Part shown: positions 1-35,350 of the stretch, in pieces
Numbering within the stretch: the first letter of the stretch is position 1
How the letters are laid out: the number at the start of each line of letters is the position of its first letter
Assembly (NCBI GenBank): GCA_031367705.1
Contig: JANLQI010000360.1
Location: 3,012-67,011, forward strand
From: Saprospiraceae bacterium
GTDB taxonomy: Bacteria; Bacteroidota; Bacteroidia; Chitinophagales; Saprospiraceae
Reading direction: 5' to 3'
Length of the DNA: 64,000 bases
Position numbers and translations under genes: made by a program
Notes under the pieces: generated by a model
What the model was told of the DNA's origin: nothing
Databases searched by the model: none
Seen by the model: the letters and a program-made list of their open reading frames with translations, nothing else

Positions 1-912
1 TTTACGTTATTATTTGAAGCATACGCTATGAGCTTAATAGAATTAGAAATGCCTGTGTCGAATGTGGCAAAATTGGTAGATGAATATGACCAACGCATTT
101 GGTCAATTTTTCATCATCATATTGCCATTGCCCAAGCTCATACAGATTACACAAACATTAAAGAAGTGGGCATTGATGAGACGAGCCGCAAAAAAGGACA
201 TGATTACGTGACAGTAGGTGTTGATTTAGAAAAACGCCGTGTTTTTGATGTTCAAACAGGCAAAGACAGTGCTTGTGTTGAACGGCTCGGTGAATTTTTA
301 GACCAAAAAGGGTCTCCTAAAGCAGAAGTGACACAAGTCTCTATTGATATGTCACCTGCTTTTATCAAAGGTTGCACCGACACTTTTGCCAATGCAGCCC
401 TCACATTTGACCATTTTCATGTCACCAAAGAAGTCAATAAAGCACTTGATGAAGTCCGTAAAATAGAACGTAAAGAAGCCAAAGAACTTAAAGGACACAA
501 ATATACTTTTTTGAAAAACCCACAATCACTAAACGATAAAAAAAGAGCTGAACTACAAGACCTTATTAAACTTTATCCAACGATTGGCGAAGCCTATCGG
601 CTTAAAGAACTTTTCCGTGAGTTCTGGACAATGGACGATGTGACTAAAGCCGAAATCTTTTTAACGGATTGGTGTGTGCAAGTCACTAAATCTAAAATCC
701 AACCCATGATAAAAGCCGCTAACACTATCAAAGCTCATTGGTCAGGTATTATTAATTTTATTCAATCTAAAATCTCTAACGGTATTCTTGAAGGTATTAA
801 TTCTAAAATCCAACTCGCTAAAAAAAGAGCCCGAGGGTATCGTAATGACAATAATTTCAAATCTATGATTTTATTTATTGCTGGTAAACTTAATTTTGAT
901 TACCCATTATAA
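1..912 (+). CDS. ISL3-family DDE transposase, 5'-truncated by the window edge
   Basis: Frame 1 has no stop from base 1. It contains GIDETSRKKGHDYVTV, FDHFHV and the C-terminal AKKRARGYRNxxNF...IAGKL pattern typical of DDE_Tnp_ISL3. Confidence 0.85.
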   Translation, partial: FTLLFEAYAMSLIELEMPVSNVAKLVDEYDQRIWSIFHHHIAIAQAHTDYTNIKEVGIDETSRKKGHDYVTVGVDLEKRRVFDVQTGKDSACVERLGEFLDQKGSPKAEVTQVSIDMSPAFIKGCTDTFANAALTFDHFHVTKEVNKALDEVRKIERKEAKELKGHKYTFLKNPQSLNDKKRAELQDLIKLYPTIGEAYRLKELFREFWTMDDVTKAEIFLTDWCVQVTKSKIQPMIKAANTIKAHWSGIINFIQSKISNGILEGINSKIQLAKKRARGYRNDNNFKSMILFIAGKLNFDYPL

Positions 913-925
913 GTCACGAAGAACC
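1..925 (+). mobile_element. ISL3-family insertion sequence, right-hand part (left part lies outside the window)
   Basis: The transposase frame is open to base 1. Bases 911-925, AAGTCACGAAGAACC, are the reverse complement of GGTTCTTCGTGACTT, which resembles the GGYTCTTCG-type ISL3 terminal inverted repeat. The element interrupts a PIN-toxin reading frame. Confidence 0.75.
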
Positions 926-928
926 TAA

Positions 929-1156
929 AATTCAGATCAAATCTCACCGACTTTTCGCTTTTTACTCATCAAAGACGACCCTGATGATGATAAATTTGTG
1001 GATTGTGCAGTAGCAGGAAATGCCGATTTCATTGTTTCTCACGATAAACATTTCAATATTTTGAAAACTATTGACTTTCCTATAGTCGAAGTCATATCAA
1101 TTGAAGAATTTAGAGAGATTTTGAACGAACAGATGGAATATTTGAGAGACATCTAA
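929..1156 (+). pseudogene. C-terminal fragment of a PIN-domain toxin gene, cut by the IS insertion
   Basis: Hand translation gives ...LLIKDDPDDDKFVDCAVAGNADFIVSHDKHFNILK...EEFREIL*, the usual C-terminal half of PIN toxin components. There is no N-terminal half and no start codon. The frame begins right after the IS end. Confidence 0.7.
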
Positions 1157-1262
1157 ATCCTTTCAAACCCCTTTACTCTTCATGAGAAATCAAGCATTTC
1201 TGACATTCAAAAGCCTTGCAATGTTCGTTGCAAGGCTTTTTTGTGGGTTTTACTGAGGGGGG
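1151..1262 (+). repeat. Boundary repeat copy A (~100 bp: conserved leader, 13-bp-stem hairpin, then TGTGGGTTTTACTGAGGGG)
   Basis: Near-identical to 2352-2450 and 3442-3552. The hairpin is AAAAGCCTTGCAA-TGTTCG-TTGCAAGGCTTTT at 1209-1240. Confidence 0.85.
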
Positions 1263-1317
1263 CGCTTCGATTAGATTTTTGTTCCAATGCACATTTGTTT
1301 TTACAAGAAATAGTCAT

Positions 1318-1325
1318 TATCTTTG
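1318..1325 (+). promoter_or_regulatory. Bacteroidota-type -7 promoter box TATCTTTG
   Basis: Matches the TAnnTTTG consensus. It lies 6 nt upstream of the tRNA-like element. The same TTATCTTTG box precedes the toxin gene at 2632. Confidence 0.45.
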
Positions 1326-1330
1326 TACTA

Positions 1331-1409
1331 AGAGTTGAAACAATGGTTGTATCGGTCTTGAGACTGAAACCTCTAACAGAGGTAGTGAGGTTCGAATCCT
1401 CCCAACTCT
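1331..1409 (+). ncRNA. tRNA-like small RNA or decayed tRNA gene (non-canonical)
   Basis: A 7-bp acceptor-like pairing joins AGAGTTG (1331-1337) to CAACTCT (1403-1409). There is a canonical T-arm, GAGG-TTCGAAT-CCTC (1387-1401), and a variable-arm-like stem, CCTCT-AAC-AGAGG (1370-1382). I could not fold a 5-bp/7-nt anticodon arm, and the D-loop is only 3-5 nt. Confidence 0.35.
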
Positions 1410-1411
1410 TC

Positions 1412-1445
1412 AAAGCCTTTCAAGCACATTGAAAGGCTTTTTTTA
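1412..1445 (+). terminator. Rho-independent terminator
   Basis: AAAGCCTTTCAA-GCAC-ATTGAAAGGCTTT followed by a T-run. Confidence 0.7.
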
Positions 1446-1447
1446 TG

Positions 1448-2230
1448 TCATAAATGCAGCTCAAATTGTTGGTACAAATCTGTAAGCGGTTTGTCAAAAC
1501 ATTCTTTATGAATTATGTTTGGTTTCAATGCGGTTAAAATACTTTCCATGCGTTCAAACCAATAATCGGTTACGCCTTCTTGCCGCCGCAACAAATAATA
1601 ACGAATTAAACCTGCCGACAAATCAGCTATTTGTATCAATTTTGAATATTGAGATTTGCCAAAATATGCAGTATCAAAAATCTCACTGAACGTCGTTCTA
1701 TGAATCGGGGATTCAATCAATTGCTCTATTTTGTCTTGAAATTGGTTTTGTTCATCAAAAATCACAAACGTATTGCCTTTGTCGTTTTTCAAAAGTGCTT
1801 GATTTTTGTCCAATTGACTAAGCACTTTGTAGGAAGCACACAAATAAGGATGTTTCAATTGATTCCGCAAAGTGGCTTCGGAACGATATATTTTGGAAAA
1901 CACGTCATTATCAACCGCACAATAGAACAATTTGAAGTTAATTTCTGATTGAAATGTCGTAAAAATCAAATGCAGCAAATCTGCCCGTTCCTCAACCGTA
2001 GGTAAGTCAAGTCGGTATGGGTTTTTATTCCTAATATCTGAAAACTTCAATTCTTTTACAGGATAGCTCAATTTTGAATTGACAACAGACAATATTGTGT
2101 CAAAAACATCAACCGCTTTTCGTAATTTTGTAAAATCTACTAAAATACCTGCCACAACTAAGATTGGTTGGTTTTCTTCAAATTTAACAGACCTCGCAAA
2201 GCCACTTTCATCGGCATAAAAAGCATACAT
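1448..2230 (-). CDS. DUF3800-family protein
   Basis: The N-terminus MYAFYADESG fits the DUF3800 Y-x-DESG start. Length is about 260 aa and the gene sits in an accessory island. Confidence 0.55.
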   Translation of the reverse strand: MYAFYADESGFARSVKFEENQPILVVAGILVDFTKLRKAVDVFDTILSVVNSKLSYPVKELKFSDIRNKNPYRLDLPTVEERADLLHLIFTTFQSEINFKLFYCAVDNDVFSKIYRSEATLRNQLKHPYLCASYKVLSQLDKNQALLKNDKGNTFVIFDEQNQFQDKIEQLIESPIHRTTFSEIFDTAYFGKSQYSKLIQIADLSAGLIRYYLLRRQEGVTDYWFERMESILTALKPNIIHKECFDKPLTDLYQQFELHL

Positions 2231-2351
2231 ATTTTTTGATTTTTGGCAAATATATATCCTCTAAATCTATTTTTGTTATGCCCTACTTACTTTTGATAAC
2301 AATCAATTGAAATTATTTTATTTGAATATCACTTAAATTTAACGTGGAAAC

Positions 2352-2450
2352 TGTCTAAATCCTATCATATTCTTGCAAATCAAGGGCATCCTAATTCAAA
2401 AGCCTTGCAATGTTCGTTGCAAGGCTTGTTTGTGGGTTTTACTGAGGGGG
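2352..2450 (+). repeat. Boundary repeat copy B
   Basis: TGTCTAAATCC...TTCAAAAGCCTTGCAATGTTCGTTGCAAGGCTTGTTTGTGGGTTTTACTGAGGGGG. It aligns with copies A and C. Confidence 0.85.
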
Positions 2451-2580
2451 TCGGTTTCGCGGGTCTGAAGACCCCTTAACATAGTAGGCTTCGGTTAAAA
2501 ACCCGAAGCCAGCACCGTCGTTCGTTGTTGTTGGTTTGTGGGGTGTTTTGAGGAAAACCGTTCGCCAGCGGATGTCAAAT
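2451..2580. other. GC-rich structured fragment of unknown nature
   Basis: Visibly more GC-rich than its surroundings. It has two perfect hairpins, GGGTC-TGAA-GACCC (2461-2474) and GGCTTCGG-N8-CCGAAGCC (2487-2510). No convincing ORF. Confidence 0.3.
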
Positions 2581-2600
2581 TTCAAAACAAAAACACTAAA

Positions 2601-2639
2601 ATAAAAGTTGACTAATTAATCAACTTTTATTTATCTTTG
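2601..2639 (+). promoter_or_regulatory. Palindromic operator plus -7 box upstream of the toxin-antitoxin pair
   Basis: ATAAAAGTTGA-N8-TCAACTTTTAT (11-bp arms, 2601-2630) is followed directly by TATCTTTG (2632-2639). Confidence 0.55.
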
Positions 2640-2702
2640 CACAACTAATAAAGGAGGTTTTTTTATAAATACTATATTCTATTAATTCAAAAAACAAATG
2701 AT

Positions 2703-3068
2703 ATGGATAATATCCGTCAAATCGTTTTTCACAAAACGTACTTTTTGGAATTTTATAATTCAGTAAACAACAAGGTTCAAGAGAAAATTGATTTTGTTTT
2801 AGAAATTTTGGCGACTCAACATCGTGTACCTACAAATCATGTGAAATTCATTGAAAACAGCGATGGCATTTATGAACTCCGTGTTTCTGTAAGAACTGAT
2901 GAATATCGTATCTTATTTTTCTTTGAAGAAGGTTCATTAATTGAAGGCGGTAAGATTGTTATTTTGGGCAATGGTTTTATCAAAAAAGATAAGAAAGATT
3001 ACAAAAAAGCGATTAGTAAGGCTGAATTTATCAAAAAAGAATATTTTGAGGAAAAGAAGAATTCATAA
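2703..3068 (+). CDS. RelE/ParE-superfamily toxin (Gp49/HigB-like)
   Basis: GIYELRVSVRTDEYRILFFFEEG...IVILGNGFIKKDKKDYKKAI is the typical Gp49-like toxin pattern. It is followed by an HTH antitoxin gene. Confidence 0.8.
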   Translation: MDNIRQIVFHKTYFLEFYNSVNNKVQEKIDFVLEILATQHRVPTNHVKFIENSDGIYELRVSVRTDEYRILFFFEEGSLIEGGKIVILGNGFIKKDKKDYKKAISKAEFIKKEYFEEKKNS

Positions 3069-3130
3069 GTTTAATCAAATAAATAAAAAACAAAAAAATT
3101 TATTCAATTCAATAAAAGAAGATAAAAATC

Positions 3131-3424
3131 ATGGAAGATAATAAAGTTAAGACATTCGAAGATTTGCTAAACAATAAGTATGGCGCAAAAGGAACACTTC
3201 AAAGAGATGATTTCCATGCCCGTGCAAAGGCGTACTATATTTGTGAAATGCTTAAAGAAGAAAGAAAAAAAGCAAAGTTGACTCAAACCCAATTGGCGGA
3301 ACGTGCCGATATGAAAAAAGAAGTCATTTCAAGAATTGAGAATGGTAAAATTGACGTGCAGTTGTCAACGTTTTTGCGTGTTATTGATGGTTTAGGTTTG
3401 CAATTGAAATTGGTGGCTGTTTGA
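3131..3424 (+). CDS. XRE-family HTH antitoxin (HigA-like)
   Basis: KLTQTQLAERADMKKEVISRIENGKIDVQLSTFLRVIDGLGLQLKL. The helix-turn-helix gene lies immediately downstream of the toxin. Confidence 0.8.
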   Translation: MEDNKVKTFEDLLNNKYGAKGTLQRDDFHARAKAYYICEMLKEERKKAKLTQTQLAERADMKKEVISRIENGKIDVQLSTFLRVIDGLGLQLKLVAV

Positions 3425-3441
3425 AAATACTGAGGGGGCTT

Positions 3442-3552
3442 TGTCTAATTCCTATCAAACCCTTTTGCCCTTCATTAGAAATCAGACATTTCTGACATTC
3501 AAAAGCCTTGCAATGTTCGTTGCAAGGCTTTTTTGTGGGTTTTACTGAGGGG
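3442..3552 (+). repeat. Boundary repeat copy C
   Basis: TGTCTAATTCCTATCAAACCC...AAAAGCCTTGCAATGTTCGTTGCAAGGCTTTTTTGTGGGTTTTACTGAGGGG. An additional motif copy precedes it at 3428. Confidence 0.85.
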
Positions 3553-3831
3553 TTATTCAATATACAAAGAACTTAAAGTTAATTCTTGAATAGCTGATTC
3601 TAATTCATTTTCTGTTGAATACCATTTTTTATCGTTTTTATTTGAAAATGCTGCCCAAAAATCATATTCAATTCTATCAATGCCTTCTAAAATGTATTGG
3701 TTTTTAGAATACCATGAAAGACGTTTAAATTCTGTTATTATACCTTTTACTTCTGTATAATTTCTAAATTGAAGCTTTGCTATTCTTTCCAAAAGTTCAT
3801 CTACTAATGGCTTAAACTCTTTCTCTGTCAT
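3553..3831 (-). CDS. Hypothetical protein (92 aa)
   Basis: ORF only; no recognisable motif. Confidence 0.4.
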   Translation of the reverse strand: MTEKEFKPLVDELLERIAKLQFRNYTEVKGIITEFKRLSWYSKNQYILEGIDRIEYDFWAAFSNKNDKKWYSTENELESAIQELTLSSLYIE

Positions 3832-4128
3832 TTTTTTTATTTAACAATTTGAACCATTTCAAATTGTGATACAAAGATAGAGTGATAAATTTCCATTTAG
3901 AAGTTCTTGATACTTATTTGATTTTCAATCTTTTAGTATTAAAATCAATAGGAGTTATTTTAATTCCAATGTGATAAAGATTAATAAGATTATCGTTAGT
4001 ATCATCTTTAACGAGAAACATGGAGTAAAGAGAAATAAAGTTGATGCTATGCCGAGTTTACTTTGTAAACCTATATTAAATTTTAAAGGCTATTGCCGAA
4101 TTTGACAAATTCTCTTTAAAAAATACTT

Positions 4129-4683
4129 TTAATCAAAGATACAATCACAATCACCTGGGTGTAAAAAGTCAGAAATATCTATATAATCAATCTTTTTTTT
4201 CTCTTTTTCTGTTTGAATAAAGTTTTGATAGCTATATACTAAAGACGAGTAATTTGTATCATAATTAAAAACAGCATTTTGGTGCTTTCGAATGTTCGAA
4301 ATGAATTCATTATTTATTTTTTCTTCTATTTCTATCATTTTGTTTCTCAAGTTAAAACTAAGATTTATTGAGTCCATATCCCCATCTTTACCAACACCTC
4401 TAAATTGCTCTACATGGTAATATAAATCTACCCAAAAATGCCATATTTTACCATCAAAAATACAACTAAATGTCGCTTTTGCTTTAGTAGGTTCTCTATA
4501 ATACATTCTATTAGGTGAATAATGATTTAAAAATTCATATATTGAAATCATATAAATAGTATCGCTGTGAAGCCTATTTTCAATGAAGATAGTATTATTG
4601 TTTTCAAAAAAGATAGCTTCTTGTAATTCAAGGTTTAAGAAGCCTTCGATATCTATATGTATAAAATTAATCGTATTATTCAT
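4129..4683 (-). CDS. Hypothetical protein (184 aa), very AT-rich
   Basis: ORF 16 nt downstream of the truncated PLD-like gene. No recognisable motif. Composition is visibly more AT-rich than the core genes. Confidence 0.45.
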   Translation of the reverse strand: MNNTINFIHIDIEGFLNLELQEAIFFENNNTIFIENRLHSDTIYMISIYEFLNHYSPNRMYYREPTKAKATFSCIFDGKIWHFWVDLYYHVEQFRGVGKDGDMDSINLSFNLRNKMIEIEEKINNEFISNIRKHQNAVFNYDTNYSSLVYSYQNFIQTEKEKKKIDYIDISDFLHPGDCDCIFD

Positions 4684-4699
4684 TATTATTCTATTTATG

Positions 4700-5005
4700 T
4701 TATTTCAGAAATTTTGAACCTATTGTGTAGTCAATGACACAAAATTTATTGTGCATCAATTTCTCACTGATGCGATAAATACGACCACCACAGGCTTGTA
4801 AATCATTGATAGACAAGTATTTATTGATGTCGTCATCAAATATCATCAAGCGCACCTTTACGCCACTTTTCGATTTTTCACAAAGCACATCTAACAACAA
4901 ACGGTCGGTAAACCAGGCCACAGCTAAGTCAATCTCTGATTCGGCAGCTAACAAACAGGCTTGAATGTGTTCTTGGATATTTTCAAAATAAGCTTGGGTC
5001 TCCAT
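4700..5005 (-). pseudogene. PLD-superfamily (Nuc-like, HKD motif) nuclease gene, 3'-truncated
   Basis: It contains HNKFCVID, an HxK(x)4D motif. The frame ends at ...YTIGSKFLK*, where intact family members continue with GSxNxT and roughly 40 more residues. Confidence 0.6.
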
Positions 5006-5085
5006 ATTTGAATTTTAGAAAGACAAATATATGAAAGAATCTATGATTTAGAATTAAAAATCCCCCCCTCAGTAAAAACTGTGTT
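4944..5085. repeat. Direct repeat copy 1 (5' end and promoter region of the PLD-like gene)
   Basis: Aligns with 6281-6425: GCAGCTAACAAACAGGCTTGAATGTGTTCTTGGATATTTTCAAAATAAGCTTGGGTCT...AGAAAGACAAATATATGAAAGAATCTATGATTT. Confidence 0.85.
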
Positions 5086-5230
5086 TTTAATAAAGAAATT
5101 TGATGTTGTGAAGTGTTTAGTCTTTTGTTAAACATTAAGTAACGCCCTAATAATTTAGTAAATTATAATATTTTTTGTATTTAAATTCAACGACATTTCA
5201 TCTTATTTGTTTTAAAATTGAACTTTTTGC

Positions 5231-5238
5231 TTTACATT
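5231..5238 (+). promoter_or_regulatory. -7 promoter box TACATTTG
   Basis: TAnnTTTG match about 60 nt upstream of the DUF1016 gene start. Confidence 0.35.
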
Positions 5239-5298
5239 TGTTTTTTGAAAACTTAATTTTTCCGTTAAACGGATTTTTAAAACTAAAATGACCACGAT

Positions 5299-6279
5299 AT
5301 GCCTTTCCAACAAGAATTCGACTATGTTTTTGACCTCATCAAAAATGCCCGAAATAAGGCTTTGCAATCTGTTAATAGCGACCAAATTATTTTATATTGG
5401 ACGATTGGGCAATTTGTTCAACAAAAATTAGATGCTTCGGAATGGGGGGAGGGCACTGTTAAAAATCTGTCATTGTATTTGCAGAGTAAAGACCCGACTT
5501 TGAGCAATTATAGTAAACGCGGTATCTATCGGATGCGGCAGTTTTATTTGGCTTATATTGATTTTGAATTTGTGTCGGCAATGCCGACACAATTAAGTTG
5601 GACTCATAATCTTGAAATTTTGAGCCAAACCAAAACAATGGAAGAACGAGAGTTTTACCTTAAACTCACATTGAAAGAAAAATTAAATTATAGAGAACTC
5701 CGTCGCCATTTAAAAACCAGTTATTTTGAACGCAGCTTGATTGCCAATCAGCTTTTGCCACCGTCTTTGGACAATTATCCGCGCGATGTATCCAATATTT
5801 TCAAGGATTCCTATATTTTTGAGTTTGCACAAATACCCGATAAACATTCAGAAAAAGACTTAAAAAAGGCTTTATTGGGTCAATTAAAGGATTTTATCTT
5901 GGAATTAGGGAAAGACTTTGTCTTTGTCGGCGAAGAATATCGGTTGCCTGTCGGCATGAAAGATTATCGCGTTGACCTTTTGTTTTATCATCGAGAACTA
6001 TCTTGCTTGGTTGCTTTTGACTTTAAAATTGAAGAATTTGAACCTTCTTTTCTTGGGCAAATGAATTTCTATTTAGAAGTATTGGATACAGATGTCAAAA
6101 AAGCACATGAAAACCCCAGTATCGGTGTCTTGATTTGCAGAAACAAAGATATTGAAGTAGTCGAATATGCTCTACGGCGTAATCTATCGCCAACTTTAGT
6201 TGCAGATTACAGCACTAAATTATTGGATAAGGCTTTATTAATTCAAAAGGTTAAGGAATTATTTAGGGATATTGGCTGA
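5299..6279 (+). CDS. YhcG-like PDDEXK nuclease (DUF1016)
   Basis: YRVDLLFYHRELSCLVAFDFKIEEFEPSFLGQMNFYLEVLD is the characteristic DUF1016 core. Length is 326 aa. Confidence 0.85.
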   Translation: MPFQQEFDYVFDLIKNARNKALQSVNSDQIILYWTIGQFVQQKLDASEWGEGTVKNLSLYLQSKDPTLSNYSKRGIYRMRQFYLAYIDFEFVSAMPTQLSWTHNLEILSQTKTMEEREFYLKLTLKEKLNYRELRRHLKTSYFERSLIANQLLPPSLDNYPRDVSNIFKDSYIFEFAQIPDKHSEKDLKKALLGQLKDFILELGKDFVFVGEEYRLPVGMKDYRVDLLFYHRELSCLVAFDFKIEEFEPSFLGQMNFYLEVLDTDVKKAHENPSIGVLICRNKDIEVVEYALRRNLSPTLVADYSTKLLDKALLIQKVKELFRDIG

Positions 6280-6280
6280 T

Positions 6281-6425
6281 GCAGCTAACAAACAGGCTTG
6301 AATGTGTTCTTGGATATTTTCAAAATAAGCTTGGGTCTTCCTATTTAAATTTTAGAAAGACAAATATATGAAAGAATCTATGATTTGAAAATAGAAAAAG
6401 CACCCCCTCCGTAAAACCTTGTTCT
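6281..6425. repeat. Direct repeat copy 2 (decayed; the ATG is lost)
   Basis: Starts one base after the DUF1016 stop codon. The CAT complementing the start codon in copy 1 reads CCT here. The motif copy is degenerate (CCCCCTCCGTA at 6403). Confidence 0.85.
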
Positions 6426-6465
6426 TTTTGGAAAAATATGTATTTTTGTAAAAAATAATTAGAAA

Positions 6466-6675
6466 ATGACATCGAATATTCAATTTCCATTAAATGAAGT
6501 TCAAGTATCACTTTTGCGCTTAACTGAAAAATTGCCACATGAAGAGCTTTTAGCCTTACAAAAGCTCATAATTGCCTTTAAAGCACAGCGTTTGTCAGCT
6601 TTGGCAGACCAAGTTTGGGATGAAAAAGGTTGGACTCAAGAAACAATGGAGATGTTTCTCAATACGCATTTCTGA
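6466..6675 (+). CDS. Hypothetical small protein (69 aa)
   Basis: ORF only. The ...DQVWDEKGWTQETMEMFLN pattern resembles small conserved Bacteroidota proteins, but I cannot name a family. Confidence 0.4.
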   Translation: MTSNIQFPLNEVQVSLLRLTEKLPHEELLALQKLIIAFKAQRLSALADQVWDEKGWTQETMEMFLNTHF

Positions 6676-6767
6676 GGATTTCTTTCCCTTTTACAAAACT
6701 TGAAAAATAGCCGTTTTACAACGAATACGTCGTAAAACGCCTATTTTTATAAGTCATTATCCCAAAA

Positions 6768-8978
6768 TCACCTACTATCCCAATGCTTCACATGCCAAAA
6801 AGGAATGTCCCAACTCAAATTAACATTGAAGCGAAATTCAAACTTTTTCAAGAAAACAGCATCATCGGTCACTTTGGACAAACGCGGTTGGGCTTGATAA
6901 CCCAAGCCGAGGTTTATAGGGCTGTTGAAGAGTCGCCCAAACATGATAAATAGCCCGGGCGAAAAGATATTGCTCAATTTTACTTTCGGAATACTGTCTG
7001 TTGTGTTCGTGAAGCGAAAACCTGCGATAGCACCGACATCCACCAAACTGGCGAAAAACTGAATGGTCTTTGGCGTGAAAAAGTCGCCAATTTTCTGTTT
7101 TTTACTGAGGGGGTAGTGCCGTTGGTTTTTTAAACCATAACTGAGGTTGATGCCAATAGGCGCAGCAATGCTGAAATAACCCGCGCTGTCATTTTGCCTA
7201 AACGTATTTTGTAGTCCAATATAACTGTTGATACTCAACAACCAGCCTTTTTCTTTGATATGTGTACCACCAGACGGTGTCATCGTGCTTTCTAAAAGTT
7301 CGGCGACGGCATCGCTGCTTTGTGCCAACACCATCGAAGCAGCAAACGAACTGTATTTGATGAATTTTAGAATGCCTGTATATTCCAAAGGCTTTTTTCC
7401 AAGCGAATCGCCGTCCACATACAGTTTTTCGATGACCATTGGTTTATTCTCCTTCATAATGTATGTGCCAGAAAACGATTTGTATTCCCGCACAGGCACC
7501 ATGTTGTTGGCACTATTGGGCTGATAAAAAGTATTCAAAGTGTCAATTCTGATAAAGTTTTTACCTTCTTTCACATACATCGGTCTTGAGTCAAAGGCTT
7601 GCACCAATTCTGCAATGTGTTGCACGGCAGCGTGGTATTCGCGTCCTTTCATTTCGGCATAAATGCGGGGCAGCATTTCAGCGACATAAATGCCTTTGTA
7701 CCACGTGCGTGGCAAAGCGGTTTCGGGTTCTAAAATATCTTTAATGGTAGGTGCAAATTTGACCAATGACAATATGTTTTCGTAGGAAGAGACCATTTTA
7801 TCCCAATAGAATTTTTCGTCATTTCCTTGAGCCAAACGCATTTCTTTATTCGCCATTTCTATCATATTGACACGACTTATCAGACCTTGAACATAGTTAC
7901 GCATTTTGTAAAAATTGTCCTTTTTGTCGTATAAACCATTGATAAAATGCCGTAAAGTCTGTCCATTCTGAAAAGTTATCGGTTTTTTATTGTCGTCAAC
8001 GGCTAATTGGTAAACCGTTCCCATCCAAATTTGAGCCCCCAAAGCATCACCTTTTACAAGCAGATTCAAACTGTCCAAACCGTTTATCCAATAATGCGTC
8101 GAATCGGCGGGGTTTGAAGACCTAAAACTGGTCGAAATGAGTTGAATCGTTTGCAGTCCTGCCCTCAAATCCAGCCCTTCGCCTTCATCGAAAGCTTCGC
8201 TGAAATGTATGTTTTCGATGATGTGACCAGGGTGTTGATTGCGAATTAAACCGTCTGCAAATTGCGTAGCTGTTGTCAAAAAGTCTCGTCCTGTTTGATT
8301 GCCTTTGAAGGCTTTGGCGTACTTTTCTGTTTCTAAAAGTTGGGTGGTATTGGCAAAAACATTGGCTAAATCTTCTTCCATTTTTTGGCGCAAACCAGCG
8401 ATGTATTGTTCAAACACATAAATATCTTTATCCATCAAAGCCAAGCCGCCAGAAGTGTTTGGAAACAGGGTTTTCAGTTCGAGACTGTTGTCCATTTCCT
8501 TTTTCATTTTTTGAAAAAACACCACGTTTAGGTCTTGTTTGAAGCGTTTGACAATGATTTTTGCAAAGGCATCGGCAAAAATAGTCGCGTTTAAATTGCC
8601 GACTTTGGAGGCAAAAGACTTTTTCCCGCCTGACCCAACACCTCTGTCGCCACTGAACATACTGATGGGGTCAGAAAATCCCCAAAAGTTATCAACATCC
8701 AAGGCATTGTACATGAAGTCGTTGTCTCTAAAGGCATTTTGAATATCTTGAATTGTTATATTTTTCGACATTTGCTGAGTCTCAATCAAGTAATCCGCAA
8801 GCGTTTTATACATACTCTGAGCTTGTTCGCTCGAATGTTTGTCTATTTTGCGATAAGCCTTAATCGAATCAGCCAAACGGAGCGAGGCATTATAAACAGG
8901 CACAACAGGTGGTTTTTGTGCCACCGATTGGGTCATAAATAATAGCAAAAAACTGAAAAGGAGTGTATATTTTATCAT
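6768..8978 (-). CDS. Secreted hypothetical protein (736 aa)
   Basis: N-terminal signal peptide MIKYTLLFSFLLLFMTQSVAQ. Its start overlaps the stop of the upstream protease gene by 4 nt. Confidence 0.6.
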   Translation of the reverse strand: MIKYTLLFSFLLLFMTQSVAQKPPVVPVYNASLRLADSIKAYRKIDKHSSEQAQSMYKTLADYLIETQQMSKNITIQDIQNAFRDNDFMYNALDVDNFWGFSDPISMFSGDRGVGSGGKKSFASKVGNLNATIFADAFAKIIVKRFKQDLNVVFFQKMKKEMDNSLELKTLFPNTSGGLALMDKDIYVFEQYIAGLRQKMEEDLANVFANTTQLLETEKYAKAFKGNQTGRDFLTTATQFADGLIRNQHPGHIIENIHFSEAFDEGEGLDLRAGLQTIQLISTSFRSSNPADSTHYWINGLDSLNLLVKGDALGAQIWMGTVYQLAVDDNKKPITFQNGQTLRHFINGLYDKKDNFYKMRNYVQGLISRVNMIEMANKEMRLAQGNDEKFYWDKMVSSYENILSLVKFAPTIKDILEPETALPRTWYKGIYVAEMLPRIYAEMKGREYHAAVQHIAELVQAFDSRPMYVKEGKNFIRIDTLNTFYQPNSANNMVPVREYKSFSGTYIMKENKPMVIEKLYVDGDSLGKKPLEYTGILKFIKYSSFAASMVLAQSSDAVAELLESTMTPSGGTHIKEKGWLLSINSYIGLQNTFRQNDSAGYFSIAAPIGINLSYGLKNQRHYPLSKKQKIGDFFTPKTIQFFASLVDVGAIAGFRFTNTTDSIPKVKLSNIFSPGLFIMFGRLFNSPINLGLGYQAQPRLSKVTDDAVFLKKFEFRFNVNLSWDIPFWHVKHWDSR

Positions 8979-9796
8979 AGTATTGCGGTTAAATTAAGTG
9001 TTATGTTTTTTTTCTTAAAGGCATCAATGACTTCAGATATGGGCATGACCAAAGTGCTGTAATCACTATCGGAAAATACGACCCCTATCAAAGCGTTGTC
9101 AGAAACCCGCAAAAGCCACGAACCACTATCACCTTGTGCTGAAATCTTTTTAGCTTTTCTATCATTTAAAATATCAGAAACAAAAATGGCATTTTCGTAT
9201 CGCCCCAATTTCCATGGGCCTTCTTGGTTTATTTTTCTAATGACACCTTTCGCTTTTGTTTTAATTCTATCATTAAAAAAACAGACTTCTGTACCGAGTT
9301 CAAGGTCTTGAATTTCCACAAATTTAGTAGGTGAACCTATCTTTTCGTTACCGAATTTATCGGTCAATTCTATCAATGCAATGTCTAATTTGCTATTGAT
9401 AAAGGCTGTTTCTGCATTAAAAACACCAATTTTATCGCCTTTTTCAGAAATCACAACGAAAGATTCTTCGGGCGAAAAAGTATTAAAATTTTCGTTATTT
9501 TGTTTGACTACATGACAACAGGTGACACCATAATGAACACCTTTGTCGGACACCAAAACGCCGCCCAGAGTGCCTTTATCGTCTTTTCTATGTTCATTGG
9601 CAATGAGCATCCCTGCAAATTTATATTCATTTATTACTGCTGTTAGGCTCGCAATCGCAGTTTCAGTCAGACTGAAAGAGGGCATTGCTTCAATACTTCG
9701 AGAGTCGGGCATAAGAAAGGTTGGGTTTTCCCTTGATTTTTTAGCTTTTTTCATTTTTTTCTTTAGTTTTCTTGGTAATCGTTTTCGTTTAGCCAT
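8975..9796 (-). CDS. Trypsin-like serine peptidase with a Lys/Arg-rich N-terminus
   Basis: Candidate catalytic triad: His in VTCCHVV, Asp in LDIALIEL, Ser in AQGDSGSW. No obvious signal peptide; the N-terminus is MAKRKRLPRKLKKKMKKAKKS. Confidence 0.7.
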   Translation of the reverse strand: MAKRKRLPRKLKKKMKKAKKSRENPTFLMPDSRSIEAMPSFSLTETAIASLTAVINEYKFAGMLIANEHRKDDKGTLGGVLVSDKGVHYGVTCCHVVKQNNENFNTFSPEESFVVISEKGDKIGVFNAETAFINSKLDIALIELTDKFGNEKIGSPTKFVEIQDLELGTEVCFFNDRIKTKAKGVIRKINQEGPWKLGRYENAIFVSDILNDRKAKKISAQGDSGSWLLRVSDNALIGVVFSDSDYSTLVMPISEVIDAFKKKNITLNLTAIL

Positions 9797-10003
9797 TTTT
9801 AAATTAAGTTTGAAATTGAATGATTATTCATGTTTTGTTCTAAGAAATTCCCTGATTTTTAAAGAAAATAGGGCTTTCGTAAGATAGTACAAATAAAAAC
9901 AAATATACAATTAATTGAAAAAAAATAGTCTATTCAAAACCTTTTTTCTAAATCGGCTATTGCACCTTCTCTCTTTATTTCATCTATAAAACGCCATAAG
10001 ACT

Positions 10004-10339
10004 ATGAAGAATCAAACGAAACTCATCTTTGTAAAAACCATCCATACTCTCGTATGGCTCTTTTTCAATGTGGTCTTATTCTATCTGGCTTATGCCGTTA
10101 TCATCAATAAAATTGACAAATATGTTTGGATTGGCATAGCCCTTATTGTGCTGGAAGGCATTGTTTTGCTTACATTCAATAAGATGTGTCCACTGACGAT
10201 TGTAGCCCGTAAATATTCCGATTCAACAAAAGACAACTTTGATATTTATCTACCTGAATGGTTGGCAAAATACAATAAACTGATTTATACAACATTATTC
10301 ATCATCATTTTATGCGGTTTGATTTATAGAATGACATGA
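10004..10339 (+). CDS. Small membrane protein (possibly DUF2784)
   Basis: Three hydrophobic segments and a CPLT motif. Confidence 0.45.
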   Translation: MKNQTKLIFVKTIHTLVWLFFNVVLFYLAYAVIINKIDKYVWIGIALIVLEGIVLLTFNKMCPLTIVARKYSDSTKDNFDIYLPEWLAKYNKLIYTTLFIIILCGLIYRMT

Positions 10340-10450
10340 TTCTAATCATTTTATGCGCTGATAGTTGTCACCATACCCCCCTCAGTATTTTGCTACTTTT
10401 GTGCAAATCATTTACTATAACTTAGGTATTAACCATAAAAATGAAAAAAT

Positions 10451-11281
10451 ATGACAACCATTCTCGTTACCACTGATTTCTCAACGAATTCAAAAAAAGG
10501 TATCCGTTTCGCATTGCAATTGGCTGCGCAAATGCCTTGTAAATTGATCTTTTATCATGCCTTAGAGTTATTGACACCGACAGCTTGGCGCAAAGAAGAT
10601 GCGATTAAATTTGTCGAAAATGCTGTCAAAAAGGTCAATAAAGAATTGGATGGTTTTATGAATAGTATCTTCAAACAAACCAAAATACAACCGAAAGCTT
10701 ACGAAAACGTCGTTGATATAGGCATGGGCGTAGATAGTATGATAGTCAACTACGCAAAGGATATTCAAGCAGATTACATCTGTATGTGTACAAGAGGTGC
10801 GGGTGTTTTGAAAAAAATCATTGGTACAAATGCTTCTACTTTGGTCAATACATCGCCCGTTCCTGTCATTGTTGTGCCACATAATTATCGCATGAAACCT
10901 ATCACTAAAGTCGGTTATGCTTCAGATTTTGAAAATATAGACAAAGAACTGACAACAGTTACTCAATTAGCTACTTCATTGAATGCAAACATGGATGTGT
11001 ATCATTTCTATTATCAATTGCATAAAACCGATAATAAGGAGGCGTTTGAAGCGATTAAAGCAAAATATGAATCGGAAAAAGTGGTTTTTTATGTGCCAAA
11101 ATTACATTTAGAACAATCACTTATTGAAAACTTGCAACAGGCCATCAATCATAAGCGACCCTCTATGTTGGTGATGTTCACAAAACATAAAAAGAGTTGG
11201 TTTGAACGTTTCTTTTTTGAAAGCAAAACGGCTGAAATGAGTTACGATATTAAAATTCCATTATTAGCGATTAGAAAGTAG
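10451..11281 (+). CDS. Universal stress protein family (tandem Usp domains)
   Basis: ILVTTDFSTNS..., ...TRGAGVLKKIIGTNASTLVNTSPVPVIVVP, with a second half of similar layout. Confidence 0.75.
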   Translation: MTTILVTTDFSTNSKKGIRFALQLAAQMPCKLIFYHALELLTPTAWRKEDAIKFVENAVKKVNKELDGFMNSIFKQTKIQPKAYENVVDIGMGVDSMIVNYAKDIQADYICMCTRGAGVLKKIIGTNASTLVNTSPVPVIVVPHNYRMKPITKVGYASDFENIDKELTTVTQLATSLNANMDVYHFYYQLHKTDNKEAFEAIKAKYESEKVVFYVPKLHLEQSLIENLQQAINHKRPSMLVMFTKHKKSWFERFFFESKTAEMSYDIKIPLLAIRK

Positions 11282-11358
11282 GTGAATAAGAATGTTGTAA
11301 AAAACATAAAAACGCTCAAAAATACTGAGGGGGGTATCTTTTTTTTTACTTTTGAAAC

Positions 11359-12402
11359 ATGAATGATAAAGAATCCAATTTCACGACTATTTCGATTAGA
11401 CAATCGGCTTTCATATTACTAATTGTCCTCGTCGGCAGCCTTATTTTTTGGCAGCTCAACAACTTTATCCCTGCTTTTTTGGGTGCTTACACTTTGTATG
11501 TTTTATCCCGAAAATGGATGTTTCGGTTGACAAAAAGATTCAAAGGGCGTGCTGTTTTGGCCGCCTCTTTATTGATGCTCATGTCTTTTGTTATCATACT
11601 TTTGCCCATCAATGGCTTGTTAAGTATTCTTTCATCGCGCATTCTGCCAGCGATTAAACATTCTAATGAAGTGTGGGCTTCTGTCGAATCTCTGATTCAT
11701 AATTTGGAGCAACAATATGGTTTTATTATCTTAAGTGAACAAAACCTAAAGAACTTAGGCGAATGGGGTATGGTTGAAATGCAAAAAGTCGTTGGTGCAA
11801 CTTTTAATGGCTTAATTACGGTCATTGTCATGTATTTTATCCTGTTTTTTATGTTGACGGAAGCCCGAACGTTTGAAAATATACTCTATAAATGGCTGCC
11901 TTTGAAAGAGCAAAGTACTGTTTATTTAAAGAAAGAACTCAATAATTTAGTGTTTTCAAACGCAATTGGCATTCCACTTGTGGCTCTGATACAAGGCATA
12001 TTTGCTTTGATTGGCTATTGGATTGCAGGTGTAGAAGAATCTTTTATTTGGTTTATTGCTACGTGCGTGGCAGCCGTTATTCCTATTTTAGGCTCGGCTT
12101 TGGTCTATGTGCCGCTTGGCATCATGTTGATTGCACAAGGTCAGACAACCTGGGGTATTTTTTTACTCTTATATGGTTTTCTCATTATCGGTTCAGTAGA
12201 TAATATTTTTCGTTTTTGGTTGCAAGAAAAAATTGGTAATATTCACCCTTTGATAACCATTTTTGGTGTCATCATGGGTCTCAATCTTTTTGGTTTCATC
12301 GGTTTGATATTTGGACCCATTCTGATTTCAGTCTTTTTATTATTGATTGAAATTTATAGAAAAGAGTTCAATGAAAAACCTCTCGAAGATATCGAAACTT
12401 GA
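11359..12402 (+). CDS. AI-2E family (PerM/UPF0118) transporter
   Basis: Polytopic membrane protein of about 350 aa with the usual AI-2E layout. Confidence 0.65.
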   Translation: MNDKESNFTTISIRQSAFILLIVLVGSLIFWQLNNFIPAFLGAYTLYVLSRKWMFRLTKRFKGRAVLAASLLMLMSFVIILLPINGLLSILSSRILPAIKHSNEVWASVESLIHNLEQQYGFIILSEQNLKNLGEWGMVEMQKVVGATFNGLITVIVMYFILFFMLTEARTFENILYKWLPLKEQSTVYLKKELNNLVFSNAIGIPLVALIQGIFALIGYWIAGVEESFIWFIATCVAAVIPILGSALVYVPLGIMLIAQGQTTWGIFLLLYGFLIIGSVDNIFRFWLQEKIGNIHPLITIFGVIMGLNLFGFIGLIFGPILISVFLLLIEIYRKEFNEKPLEDIET

Positions 12403-12479
12403 TGCTTTTACTTGTATTTGAGTAATAAATAGACGAATTTTGTACTTTTTAAAATCACTTTTTACTAAAAACACATCTT

Positions 12480-12689
12480 ATGAAGACCATAAAAGAGCTC
12501 AATGACGATATTCTGAAAATGACAATGAAAATTAACGAACAGCATCCAGAATTGTCGAAATACCTTGAAGAAATGCCCGACACCATTCCAAATGTTGCTG
12601 ACCCCCACATGGATAGGGAAACGCTTCTTAAATATCACGAATCTTTGCTGACATTAATGAAGCAATATGAAGTCAATCACCAGGGATAA
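12480..12689 (+). CDS. Hypothetical small protein (69 aa)
   Basis: ORF only. Confidence 0.4.
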   Translation: MKTIKELNDDILKMTMKINEQHPELSKYLEEMPDTIPNVADPHMDRETLLKYHESLLTLMKQYEVNHQG

Positions 12690-12790
12690 TTGGGGTTGAA
12701 AATGCCCCCCTCAGTATTTTATAGTAAATCAAATGACGGTATGATTGTCAATCATCCCGTCATTAATCTGTTAAAAACGTATAAGAAAAC

Positions 12791-13798
12791 ATGAAAGTAG
12801 CTGTATTCAGTACAAAACCCTACGACCGCACGTACCTCGATAAATTCAATACCGACAATCAACATGAACTCACTTTCTTTGATGCGTCTTTGATTGTTAA
12901 CACCTCAAATTTAGCCATTGGGTTTGATGCCGTTTGTGTCTTTGTCAGTGATAAAATTGACAAGGAAACCATTGGAAAATTGGCAGAAAATGGCGTAAAA
13001 CTCATTGATTTGCGCTGTGCGGGTTTCAATAATGTGGATTTAGAAGCTGCCTCTGAACACCAAATTAAAGTGTTGAGAGTGCCTGCTTATTCGCCGCAAG
13101 CAGTCGCTGAACACGCGGTGGCTATAATTTTAACGCTCAATCGGAAAACGCATAAAACCTATAATCGGGTAAGAGAAGGGAACTTTTCATTAGAAAATCT
13201 GATGGGTTTTAATCTCTATGGCAAAACAATAGGCGTGATTGGAACGGGGAGAATAGGAGAGGCGTTTTGCCACATCATGCAAGGTTTTGGTTGTAAGGTT
13301 TTGGCTTATGACATCCATGAATCCAAAAGTTTGAAAGCAAAAGGCATCGAATACACGTCTTTAGAAGCGATTTTAAGCGATTCTGATATTATTTCGTTGC
13401 ATTGTCCGCTTACACCACAAACACATTATCTGTTCAACAGTGAGACTTTTGCTAAAATGAAACAAGGTGCGATGCTCATAAACACGAGTCGTGGCGGCTT
13501 AATCAATACCAAAGATGCTGTTAAAGCCTTAAAAAAAGGACAATTAGGCTATTTGGGCATTGATGTTTATGAACAGGAAGAAAATTTGTTTTTCAATGAT
13601 TTATCAGACAGTATCATCAAAGATGACTTGATTCAACGATTGGTGTCTTTTCACAATGTTCTCATTACACCGCATCAAGGTTTTTTTACTCACGAAGCCT
13701 TGAGCCAAATTGCGATTACGACGATGAAAAACTTTACGGATTTTGAAAAAGGTGTGGCTTCCGAAAACGAGGTGCAGTTTGAAAAAGTAAAGGCATAA
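12791..13798 (+). CDS. ldhA: D-lactate dehydrogenase / D-2-hydroxyacid dehydrogenase
   Basis: MKVAVFSTKPYDRTYLDKFN... parallels the LdhA N-terminus. It has the GxGxxG motif GVIGTGRIG and the C-terminal ...ITPHQGFFT. Confidence 0.9.
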   Translation: MKVAVFSTKPYDRTYLDKFNTDNQHELTFFDASLIVNTSNLAIGFDAVCVFVSDKIDKETIGKLAENGVKLIDLRCAGFNNVDLEAASEHQIKVLRVPAYSPQAVAEHAVAIILTLNRKTHKTYNRVREGNFSLENLMGFNLYGKTIGVIGTGRIGEAFCHIMQGFGCKVLAYDIHESKSLKAKGIEYTSLEAILSDSDIISLHCPLTPQTHYLFNSETFAKMKQGAMLINTSRGGLINTKDAVKALKKGQLGYLGIDVYEQEENLFFNDLSDSIIKDDLIQRLVSFHNVLITPHQGFFTHEALSQIAITTMKNFTDFEKGVASENEVQFEKVKA

Positions 13799-13843
13799 AA
13801 AAACGGTGATAAGATGCAATGACTTCTTATCGCCGTTTTTTTT
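13797..13843 (+). terminator. Rho-independent terminator of ldhA
   Basis: ACGGTGATAAG-N12-CTTATCGCCGT followed by a T-run. Confidence 0.75.
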
Positions 13844-19428: not shown

Positions 19429-19429
19429 C

Positions 19430-34823: not shown

Positions 34824-34918
34824 TTTGATTGATTTGATTTTGATTTTATAAACAGCCAAAAGTAGTGATTTTGGTTGATTTTAAATTCAAAACAATCGTT
34901 TTTTCGACCCCCTCAGTA

Positions 34919-35350
34919 TCAGACCTCTTTTTCTTGCCAAGCGATTATCAAAGCAGGCAAATTGAATATGAGTGTTCCGACGAAACAGAGTGTACAAAGA
35001 ATATATTGGAAAGTATTGCTTTTGTAAAACTCAAAACCAATTGGTAACATAAACATTGAGGTTATGAGAATTAAAAAATAGGCATCGCGTTGGGCTTTTA
35101 TACGTACAAATGAAAGTCTTTCATCAAGCTGTATTTCTTTTTTGGCGATTTTGAAAGCGTCACTAATAGATTTTAAATAGAGTTCAACGACCATGTTGAT
35201 GATTAATAATACAAAAAATATCCCTATCAAAAGACCTATATTGATTCTTACGTAAAGATACAGTAACAGCCATAATGCTAAAAAAAACATTAAATAAAGG
35301 ACGACCAAAATACGCCTTGTTTTCAAGGTTGAATAGTTGCTTTTTTCCAT
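34919..35350 (-). CDS. Membrane protein, paralogue 2 of a tandem pair
   Basis: Start chosen at MEKSNYSTLKTRR. Same architecture as 35400..35834 and the same C-terminus, IAWQEKEV. Confidence 0.6.
   Translation of the reverse strand: MEKSNYSTLKTRRILVVLYLMFFLALWLLLYLYVRINIGLLIGIFFVLLIINMVVELYLKSISDAFKIAKKEIQLDERLSFVRIKAQRDAYFLILITSMFMLPIGFEFYKSNTFQYILCTLCFVGTLIFNLPALIIAWQEKEV

Follow-up and report, generated by a model that had tools for sequence, protein, structure and literature searches.

How are the modules of an accessory island joined, and what role in this process is played by a short sequence that stands at their edges? This question is raised by a 64-kb stretch of DNA from a Saprospiraceae bacterium (contig JANLQI010000360.1, positions 3,012 to 67,011, in the following referred to as the window), in which k-mer counting identifies ACTGAGGGG as the single outstanding word, with 53 exact copies. 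An initial annotation, made from the sequence alone, had described the first 6.7 kb as a mosaic island whose modules are bounded by copies of this word and had proposed the word as a preferred breakpoint. Our comparison with related genomes has revealed a hypervariable accessory locus that is real, and it has defined the region 913-6767 of the window as the right-hand part of a cassette array, which resides in an intergenic hot spot of an uncultured Saprospiraceae clade.

An intergenic hot spot with empty and filled sites

The hot spot is located between a conserved alpha/beta-hydrolase gene, which lies to the left of the window, and a conserved gene of 736 codons (736-aa gene), which forms its right border and by which relatives of the locus were identified in three Saprospiraceae metagenome-assembled genomes (MAGs). 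In one of these relatives (contig L004), the hydrolase and 736-aa genes are convergent and separated by 79 bp, thus constituting an empty site, in which the hydrolase stop codon is followed by a terminator hairpin, a T-rich spacer, the word, 11 nt and the stop codon of the 736-aa gene. In a second relative (L002), the same genes are 8.6 kb apart, and the intervening island contains, besides three copies of the punctuation element described below, PIN_3 and antitoxin genes, a full PLD gene, a PBECR3 nuclease gene, a DUF6932 pair, a DUF433/DUF5615 pair and a DUF900 gene. At least 8.9 kb of further cassettes are found in L035, a contig of the same MAG as L003 that was reached through its 93%-identical HigB, with a cargo comprising a 72-aa open reading frame (ORF), DUF6932, PIN_3, RelE, an AAA_15 block, HigB/HTH, a small-ORF pair and repeated XisI/XisH pairs. 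The filled sites hold cassettes of one to three genes (toxin-antitoxin pairs, nucleases), at least several of which carry their own Bacteroidetes-type promoter. The same conserved gene pair thus delimits different whole-gene cassettes in each genome, with L004 being empty and with L002, L003 together with L035, and the window holding different sets.

No mobility genes were found in the complete L002 island, and the ISL3-family insertion sequence (IS) at the left end of the window looks secondary since it interrupts a PIN gene. It truncates this gene on its right, and the same junction is present in the ENA/NCBI contigs L005, L006 and L016, where the 69 residues encoded at the left end of L006 correspond to the C-terminus of the ISL3 transposase. 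Every contig carrying the island of the window also ends in the IS near its left end, or in the repeats. All contigs recovered by exact-protein look-ups with the island genes are colinear with the window and 99.8-99.9% identical to it, and the look-up with the 736-aa gene gave one contig that is 100% identical to window 6539-13913. Scans of JGI metagenomes, based on an alignment of the 736-aa protein and on the pattern TCTAAATCCTATC-N40-70-ACTGAGGGG, gave no matches, and neither did scans of viral contigs for element patterns, which thus provide no sign of a phage attP.

The succession of hydrolase terminator, spacer and word found at the empty site is also present in L044/L045 and L043, so that, together with L004, it precedes three different downstream neighbours; in its L043 version, where the word is degenerate, 49 of 53 positions match the element in the window. 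The arrangement is ancestral, and since the same unit stands at the hydrolase gene in distant relatives, the punctuation of the arrays represents a multiplied form of the native hydrolase terminator and word. The elements, as repeats of 60-115 nt, are 91-99% identical between genomes, compared to 83-85% in core DNA, which fits recent exchange.

Punctuation elements and the joints of the array

The word copies of the island are found at the positions given by the initial annotation, with small shifts: 1252, 2441, 3429 and 3544 on the plus strand, 5065 on the minus strand, and a degenerate copy (ccccctccgta) at 6403-6413. Three of these six copies (1252, 2441 and 3544) form the 3'-terminal 9 nt of a direct repeat of 99-115 nt, which consists of an extension starting with TCTAAATCC, a perfect terminator hairpin AAAAGCCTTGCAAtgttcgTTGCAAGGCTTTT, a spacer TTGTGGGTTTT and the word. 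The punctuation and repeats of the window are as follows:

1152..1260, plus strand: punctuation element, copy 1 (extension TCTAAATCC, hairpin 1209-1240, spacer TTTTGTGGGTTTT, word 1252-1260), with direct-repeat families D1 and D3
2351..2449, plus strand: punctuation element, copy 2, with a different extension subtype (hairpin 2398-2427, word 2441-2449)
2450..2530, plus strand: conserved leader GTCGGTTTCGCGGGTCTGAAGACCCC..., which begins directly after the word and follows another hairpin type in L002
3438..3552, plus strand: punctuation element, copy 3, an 'empty cassette' between direct words (extension, hairpin 3501-3532, word 3544-3552)
4944..5088, no strand assigned: 145-bp direct repeat, copy 1 (PLD start and upstream region with word), from repeat comparison
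5065..5073, minus strand: inverted word in the PLD upstream region, with a degenerate counterpart in L002/L003 and at 6403
6281..6426, no strand assigned: 145-bp direct repeat, copy 2, the in-situ copy with the degenerate word 6403-6413, which directly adjoins the antitoxin gene, as it does in L002/L003

Copy 1 shares 91-99% identity with its counterparts in L002, L035 and L036, and copy 3 is 95.5% identical to L002 18769-18900. The extension, which comprises roughly 50 nt, precedes many of the hairpin-spacer-word copies; its derivation from the 3' coding end of the hydrolase gene was considered and is unsupported, only hairpin, spacer and word being alignable. 'Empty cassettes' of 112-115 nt between direct words are found in the window (3429-3552) and twice in L002 (18772-18887, 17844-17956). 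Elements are confined to the arrays, with none detected in the approximately 57 kb of core in the window or in the approximately 35 kb of core in its relatives. Since three of the words terminate such 99-115-nt repeats, the recombining unit is often much longer than the word, which qualifies the description of module edges as words in the initial annotation. A further bracketing by words that had been claimed for the DUF1016 gene has to be replaced: the gene is enclosed by the 145-bp duplication, whose copies (4944-5088 and 6281-6426) are 91-94% identical and extend about 15 nt past the word, in agreement with the duplicated PLD start already recognized in the annotation. Searches of Rfam, at the gathering threshold or with E up to 5, did not assign the elements, the leader or the small RNA of the island to any family, and inspection by eye, made without a formal search, showed no XerD-arm-like or dif-like sequence in the elements. 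The leader (2450-2530, L002 17843-17760) contains two hairpins, one of them with a compensatory change (cttcgg..ccgaag vs gttcgg..ccgaac), and precedes HigBA in the window and the PBECR3 nuclease gene in L002.

The multiplied unit of about 105 nt could itself be a non-autonomous transposable element, either a miniature inverted-repeat transposable element (MITE) or a palindrome-associated transposable element (PATE) of the IS200/IS605 type, that targets the word and doubles or restores it. Such an origin would be in line with the placement of several copies between direct words (window 3429/3544, L002, L035), with the hairpins contained in the unit and with the presence of a Y1 transposase gene in the related contig L024. 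It is at odds with the confinement of the copies to arrays, with the absence of the upstream word in two of the three copies of the window, with the position of the L024 gene, which does not lie between word pairs, and with the 3' half of the unit, which is the resident hydrolase terminator. The unit contains no terminal inverted repeats; a MITE or PATE would be expected to have these or subterminal hairpins at both ends, a target-site duplication and dispersed copies with empty and filled alleles. We regard transposition of this kind as very improbable. The Y1 gene of L024 (11678-12214) encodes a 178-aa protein resembling HUH transposases of the IS200/IS605 type, with one word about 120 nt upstream, on a contig that carries a 93%-identical hydrolase. 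A relationship to repetitive extragenic palindromes (REP) and their associated transposases (RAYT) was rejected, as the gene has no flanking inverted words or hairpins.

A common grammar emerges from every intergenic region of L035 and from the joints of L002 and the window. Genes are followed, in part after a word, N6-7 and an extension starting with TCTAAATCC, by a hairpin, a T-rich spacer, the word and the next module. The terminator hairpins are of at least four sequence types, and the next module may be a conserved promoter tatttgacaatccgaa..tatctttgtaaaaaa (in three cassettes), the conserved leader gtcggtttcgcgggtctgaagacccc (in the window and L002), another extension, or the stop codon of a reversed cassette located 0-3 nt past the word. 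In a clustering of the flanks, hairpin types 2 and 3 are found before the promoter module, types 1 and 4 before the leader and types 1 and 2 before the DUF6932 cassette, and type 1 precedes five different right-hand sequences. The word stands at the joint in all tabulated combinations of hairpin and right-hand module. Next to DUF900, the alignment of L002 with L035 shows 96% identity as far as the last G of the word and no detectable similarity beyond, and the HigBA cassette of L035 shows 88.8% nucleotide identity to the window, where the similarity stops at 3430.

A second cassette locus punctuated by words was found in another lineage (L040 3383-6749, JGI 3300080914), where it lies in another genomic context, between a Por_Secre_tail gene and TPR genes. 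Its punctuation consists of the hairpin CAGCCTTGAAAAC.TCGGTTTTCAAGGCTG, TTGCCGTTTTAT, the word and a conserved GTCCCTTTCGCAC, with a HigBA pair placed between direct words. In addition, the inverted words at 5666 and 5720 form a palindrome of about 60 nt.

Words at cassette boundaries and breakpoints

Of 15 cassette boundaries in the toxin-antitoxin portions of the three arrays, 13 carry an exact word, compared to 12 of 48 intergenic regions of the core (Fisher P = 3e-5), and the word is present at 14 of 26 boundaries if all island boundaries are considered (P = 0.02). The array words share one orientation in 18 of 19 cases (P = 8e-5; 4/5 in the window, 5/5 in L002 and 9/9 in L035). The nine exact words of L035, which are all intergenic and on the plus strand, mark seven of its nine boundaries, with a degenerate copy at an eighth. 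The result is a series of unidirectional cassettes, each ending in a putative site, as found in arrays of the integron type. For a view of breakpoints, all ends of BLAST homology among six sequences were collapsed to unique positions. Within 10 nt of a word we find 16 of 68 intergenic breakpoints, compared to an expectation of 5.6 for random intergenic positions (P = 1e-4) and of 8.0 for positions within the same intergenic region (P = 5e-3), with P values that are optimistic because the junctions are not independent. The effect is real and concentrated in the arrays and in a few cassettes. The role as preferred breakpoint, as assigned to the word in the initial annotation, is thus upheld by the excess and limited by the majority of breakpoints that lack a word, and the coincidence of module edges with words exceeds chance at the joints of relatives and is weak in the window alone.

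This latter aspect leads to the possibility of coincidence combined with ordinary gene punctuation, whereby terminators would have been duplicated together with their neighbours and the word would play no role in recombination. The word density of the island equals the genome average, module edges necessarily fall into intergenic DNA, where words are 2.2 times denser than in coding DNA, and the pair 5065/6403 stems from a single duplicated segment. The excess in the window is weak (P = 0.04-0.19), with all five exact island words being intergenic compared to 3.0 intergenic and 2.8 coding copies expected from the densities of the core (P 0.04), which by itself is suggestive. Together with the prevalence of wordless breakpoints, these properties would be natural consequences of coincidence. 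They leave unexplained the difference between cassette boundaries and core intergenic regions, the uniform orientation of the words, the excess that persists within the same intergenic region, the various combinations of left and right modules around the word and the 96%-identical alignment that stops at its last base. Coincidence is in our view improbable as an account of the array.

The same regularities bear on the main rival of the model proposed below, an integron-like process, in which a tyrosine, serine or HUH recombinase provided in trans would act on a composite site, consisting either of hairpin and word or of word, N6/7 and TCTAAATCC. Such an enzyme would cut beside the word and move circular cassettes in and out at the hydrolase terminator, where the regenerated site would permit tandem accretion. 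This scenario would account for repeats that copy a native site in one direction, for joints whose position is constant to within one G with more than ten right-hand sequences, for the 'empty cassettes' between direct words and for the distance between word and TCTAAATCC, which is constant at 6-7 nt with a varied spacer sequence as in a core site with its overlap region. The cargo of toxin-antitoxin and nuclease genes is likewise that of chromosomal integrons. What is missing is the enzyme: there is no recombinase in the complete L002 island or beside either flanking gene, and in the window, whose start and IS cut off the left part of the array, the only candidates are the ISL3 transposase and a YhgA-like gene. 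An intI gene was not found in the complete L002 island and both its flanks; such a gene, with attI beside the array, belongs to an integron and is not needed by a cluster of attC sites lacking an integron-integrase (CALIN). The design of an attC site is also absent, with no GTTRRRY at the joint, no inverse word 5' of the hairpin and a hairpin that RNAalifold predicts to be a perfect terminator stem, accompanied by weak long-range pairing of 6 bp with one compensatory pair. Hairpin sequences vary between subtypes, and a bare-word target that occurs every 1.2 kb, also inside genes, would be dangerous. We consider an integron-like enzyme to be possible, if doubtful.

A proposed model for the shuffling of cassettes

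We tentatively favour, with a confidence that falls somewhat short of even, a shuffling of cassettes by recombination in the repeats, with the word serving as a short-homology joint. Cassettes would be gained, lost and shuffled through recombination in the punctuation, where repeats of 60-115 nt would offer enough homology for RecA-type exchange, deletion or Campbell-type insertion, and the 145-bp duplication around the DUF1016 gene may exemplify recombination of this repeat type. The word, with 10-12 nt, would be the short stretch of identity through which unrelated DNA becomes linked in homology-facilitated illegitimate recombination, with one end being anchored in a repeat and the other joined at the word. 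More speculatively, and by analogy, the word might act as a DNA-uptake-type signal, and word-bearing cassettes might spread between lineages by natural transformation, in the manner of the minimal mobile elements of Neisseria.

Several observations weigh against this model. About three quarters of the breakpoints have no word nearby, and the counted junctions are partly orthologous between L002 and L035. The word is not always the edge of homology, since conserved sequence often continues through it, as in case of the promoter in L035 and of the leader TTTCGC, which the window shares with L002 and L040. Boundaries on the side of the islands that adjoins the 736-aa gene (PIN, antitoxin, PLD, DUF1016) are not located at words. 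An identity of 10-12 nt is below the length usual for efficient RecA recombination, and the regular joints and single orientation are what a site-specific enzyme would produce. The step of uptake is drawn from analogy only. Finally, the comparison of related strains or MAGs, which had been proposed in the initial annotation, has shown a cassette content that differs between MAGs with joints at the word; at the level of strains, no presence/absence polymorphism was found, the contigs of the window's own population being colinear at 99.8-100% identity.

We have also considered an undescribed cassette-capture system of Bacteroidota, in which the array would grow at the terminator through site-specific insertion of toxin-antitoxin and defence cassettes that bring their own promoters, with crossover in a 12-mer by an enzyme acting in trans on a word that would at the same time be a genome-wide signal of the uptake type, and judge such a combination to be rather unlikely.

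Genes of the island in the window

The genes of the island and its right border are listed below. Those of the IS, DUF3800, HigB/HigA, the PLD fragment and DUF1016, as named in the initial annotation, match the corresponding Pfam families, the broken PIN gene is recovered by its homologue in L002, and the two orphan genes have no family.

28..912, plus strand: ISL3-family transposase gene (Pfam DDE_Tnp_ISL3, E 1.5e-71); the window start falls inside the IS
929..1156, plus strand: C-terminal half of a broken PIN_3 toxin gene (blastp to residues 69-137 of the 137-aa L002 PIN_3 protein, 51% identity, E 1e-23)
1326..1446, plus strand: small RNA gene (cloverleaf 1330-1410 and intrinsic terminator; fold -41.8 kcal/mol, z = -5.6)
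1448..2230, minus strand: DUF3800 gene (Pfam PF12686, E 2e-10)
2703-3068, plus strand: HigB (Gp49) gene (Pfam)
3131-3424, plus strand: HigA (HTH_3) gene (Pfam), the HigBA pair spanning 2703..3424
3553-3831, minus strand: orphan ORF 1, no family
4129-4683, minus strand: orphan ORF 2, no family
4700-5005, minus strand: fragment of a PLD-like nuclease gene, first 101 codons (Pfam PLDc_2, matching the first 92 of 382 residues)
5299..6279, plus strand: DUF1016/YhcG PD-(D/E)XK nuclease gene (Pfam, E 4e-53 and 3e-33)
6466..6675, plus strand: truncated antitoxin-like gene (blastp, 32% identity, E 7e-11, to a 76-aa L002 protein)
6768..8978, minus strand: conserved 736-aa gene, right border of the hot spot (76-86% aa identity in three Saprospiraceae MAGs)

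The small RNA and the DUF3800 gene form one cassette (1261-2449), the HigA stop codon lies 4 nt ahead of the word 3429-3437, and the three genes on the minus strand, i.e. the two orphan ORFs and the PLD fragment, occupy 3553..5005. A homologue of the antitoxin-like gene precedes a PIN gene in L002 and L003, and no PIN gene is found at this place in the window. The small RNA had been described as tRNA-like, which applies to its shape, a four-arm cloverleaf with a GGUUCGAAUCC T-arm (GAGGUUCGAAUCCUC) and an acceptor-like stem of 8 bp. A tRNA gene at 1330-1410 was rejected, as ARAGORN gave no match and Rfam a score of 20 bits for tRNA-Sec compared to a gathering score of 47; the 'anticodon' arm contains only a tetraloop where a tRNA needs an anticodon loop of 7 nt. 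A Bacteroidetes-type promoter (TTTG ... TAtcTTTG) is recognizable upstream by eye, and no homologues of the small RNA were found in the related loci checked (L002-L004, L024, L030-L032).

The word in the window and in related contigs

Within the window, whose GC content is 36.6%, the word takes the form (T)ACTGAGGGG(G), with T at position -1 in 50 and G after the core in 38 of the 53 copies, and the form TACTGAGGGG is found 50 times. No single-mismatch variant of ACTGAGGGG reaches three copies, thus defining a sharp peak of exact matches. The density of 0.83 per kb corresponds to about one copy per 1.2 kb. Thirty copies are on the plus and 23 on the minus strand in interleaved orientations; 18 are intergenic and 35 are located in ORFs (18 sense, 17 antisense), where they fall into five frame/strand classes that make use of all stop-avoiding frames. 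A polar word of the Chi type or of the type of FtsK-orienting polar sequences (KOPS) was rejected, since the pattern, with both strands interleaved and sense and antisense copies near equal, is not strand-polar. One exact 9-12-mer is thus over-represented throughout the genome, on both strands and including genes, as is characteristic of DNA uptake sequences (DUS) and uptake signal sequences (USS).

Densities of about 0.5-1.1 per kb are found in the related contigs of at least 4 kb that were retrieved, and in the stretch aligned to L002, five of eight words of the window are at orthologous positions as judged by conversion of coordinates. The lineage of L046, an 8.4-kb contig that carries a more distant HigBA homologue, contains no words. 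Three intergenic words of the window (12707, 16028 and 47416) share the longer form ACTGAGGGGGGCATTTT, and an enrichment of T 5-9 nt after the core (45-55% vs 32% background) hints at an extended motif. In the literature we found neither an account of the word, full-text matches being restricted to unrelated eukaryotic sequences and primers, nor a description of an uptake-type sequence for Bacteroidota. No competence genes were seen among the genes of the 64-kb window, which says little at this scale.

Sites outside the hot spot

Words are also found at rearranged sites elsewhere in the window and its relatives. The perfect identity between tandem paralogues that had been noted in the initial annotation is present:

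34907..34939 and 35388-35420, minus strand: 33-nt perfect identity TGGCAAGAAAAAGAGGTCTGATACTGAGGGGGT, which spans the seven final codons, the stop codon and the word and ends just past the latter

The paralogues (34919-35834, minus strand) encode membrane proteins of 143 and 144 aa with no Pfam family and are elsewhere about 70% identical in their 3' half; a small HTH_3 gene (35847-36095) lies upstream. The sigma-factor fragment proposed to lose similarity near a word-like sequence was not confirmed, as 29042-29170 (minus strand) gave no match to Pfam and does not resemble the ECF sigma factor of the window.

A P-type ATPase cassette is located between inverted words with their G-runs pointing inward in L002 (6107-8986) and L003 (about 6045-8960). 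It is missing from the window, which carries an empty site at about 9948-9978. The cassettes of L002 and L003 are 95.3% identical compared to 84.8% in the flanks, and the tract of high identity ends inside the word. The right-hand word of this cassette is split in L003 by a 21-nt insertion, and a deletion of about 300 bp in L002, which starts 6 nt outside this word, removes the 5' part of the small gene that corresponds to window 10004-10339. An indel specific to the window at 12707 contains a word.

Among further features, a block of about 5 kb (17529-22567) is absent from L004. It starts with a YhgA/Rpn-like PD-(D/E)XK 'Transposase_31' gene (17581-18699, minus strand) and further comprises genes for an ECF sigma factor and three uncharacterized products; the site in L004 that lacks it has a word inside a terminator, and the block in the window ends with a word 4 nt past the last stop codon (22455). 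Tandem repeats are found at 27041-27218 (21 nt x 8.5, overlapping the start of ORF 26803-27153 and its upstream spacer), at 42214-42277 (CCATTT x 10.7, intergenic), at 62250-62352 (a 22-nt array of the AATGGTGAAT type at the end of a DinB-like gene) and at 55467-55669 (72 nt x 2.8 inside a 562-aa ORF).

Relationship to known systems

To our knowledge, experimental evidence for hyper-abundant words of the uptake type is confined to Neisseriaceae and Pasteurellaceae, and ordered cassette arrays are known mainly from integrons. An uncultured freshwater clade of Saprospiraceae unites both properties, a word that resembles DUS and is found about 0.8 times per kb and cassette arrays that are jointed at it. 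If the word drives uptake or joining, modules of defence and addiction would be shuffled between species along a concrete route, defined by sequence, that needs neither conjugative elements nor phages or integrases, and a testable link would exist between the biology of uptake sequences and the formation of genomic islands. In a conservative reading, the locus offers a clean set of natural alleles, empty and filled, in which the building of an accessory island can be studied.

The arrays share features with the modules of Acinetobacter plasmids that are bounded by pdif sites, which are 28-bp XerC/XerD sites. In both cases small modules, often encoding toxin-antitoxin systems, are delimited by short sites in varied contexts, some of which are inverted, as found for the words 3544/5065 of the window and for the ATPase cassette of L002. 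With integron arrays and CALINs they have in common the cassettes of one to two genes in one direction, a structured repeat of about 60-115 nt, the joint at a fixed short core, the toxin-antitoxin and defence-type cargo and the presence of 'empty' units. They differ from both in that there is no intI beside the array, that the hairpin is a plain terminator without R''/R' pairing, that cassettes carry their own promoters and that the core is a genome-wide word. Integrons are very rare in Bacteroidetes according to IntegronFinder 2.0 (doi 10.1101/2022.02.28.482270).

The word itself resembles DUS and USS in being a sharp 10-12-mer found about once per kb on both strands without bias and in several frames, in its conservation across related species, in its approximately 2-fold intergenic enrichment, in its location after terminators and in the occasional presence of inverted pairs. 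Its density is close to that of the Neisseria DUS, for which a value of about 0.87 per kb was calculated from DUS counts and genome sizes (PMC3898611). In contrast to DUS and USS, the word is rich in G-runs in a genome with 37% GC, and the preferential uptake by a competence machinery with a cognate receptor that defines DUS and USS would be hypothetical here.

A similar arrangement of repeats is found in neisserial intergenic mosaic elements (NIMEs), in which units of 30-160 bp termed RS are flanked by 20-bp dRS3 repeats; these short repeats have been suggested to be targeted by a recombinase and also to promote recombination with incoming DNA (PMC3898611). NIMEs and the elements described here share a unit size of about 100 nt, a short and abundant flanking repeat, an organization in intergenic arrays and a role as sites of gene insertion and deletion. 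The dRS3 repeats differ by their terminal inverted repeats, their known function as phage integration site and their separation from the DUS, whereas in the array the flanking repeat is a non-palindromic genome-wide word and the units separate functional gene cassettes. Neisseria also harbours minimal mobile elements (Saunders & Snyder 2002), which, in the account given in PMC3898611, consist of varied whole-gene cassettes at a site defined by conserved genes, without mobility genes. Their incorporation is ascribed to homologous recombination after transformation. Both cases show a conserved gene pair enclosing varied cassettes in a host whose genome is full of a 12-nt word, with about 0.8-0.9 copies per kb. 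The Saprospiraceae locus is distinguished by stacked cassettes and a dedicated repeat in one orientation, in a member of the Bacteroidota where transformation is suggested by analogy only. Collectively, the locus described here conforms to a minimal mobile element in the descriptive sense, and it resembles a NIME in which the word takes the role of dRS3.

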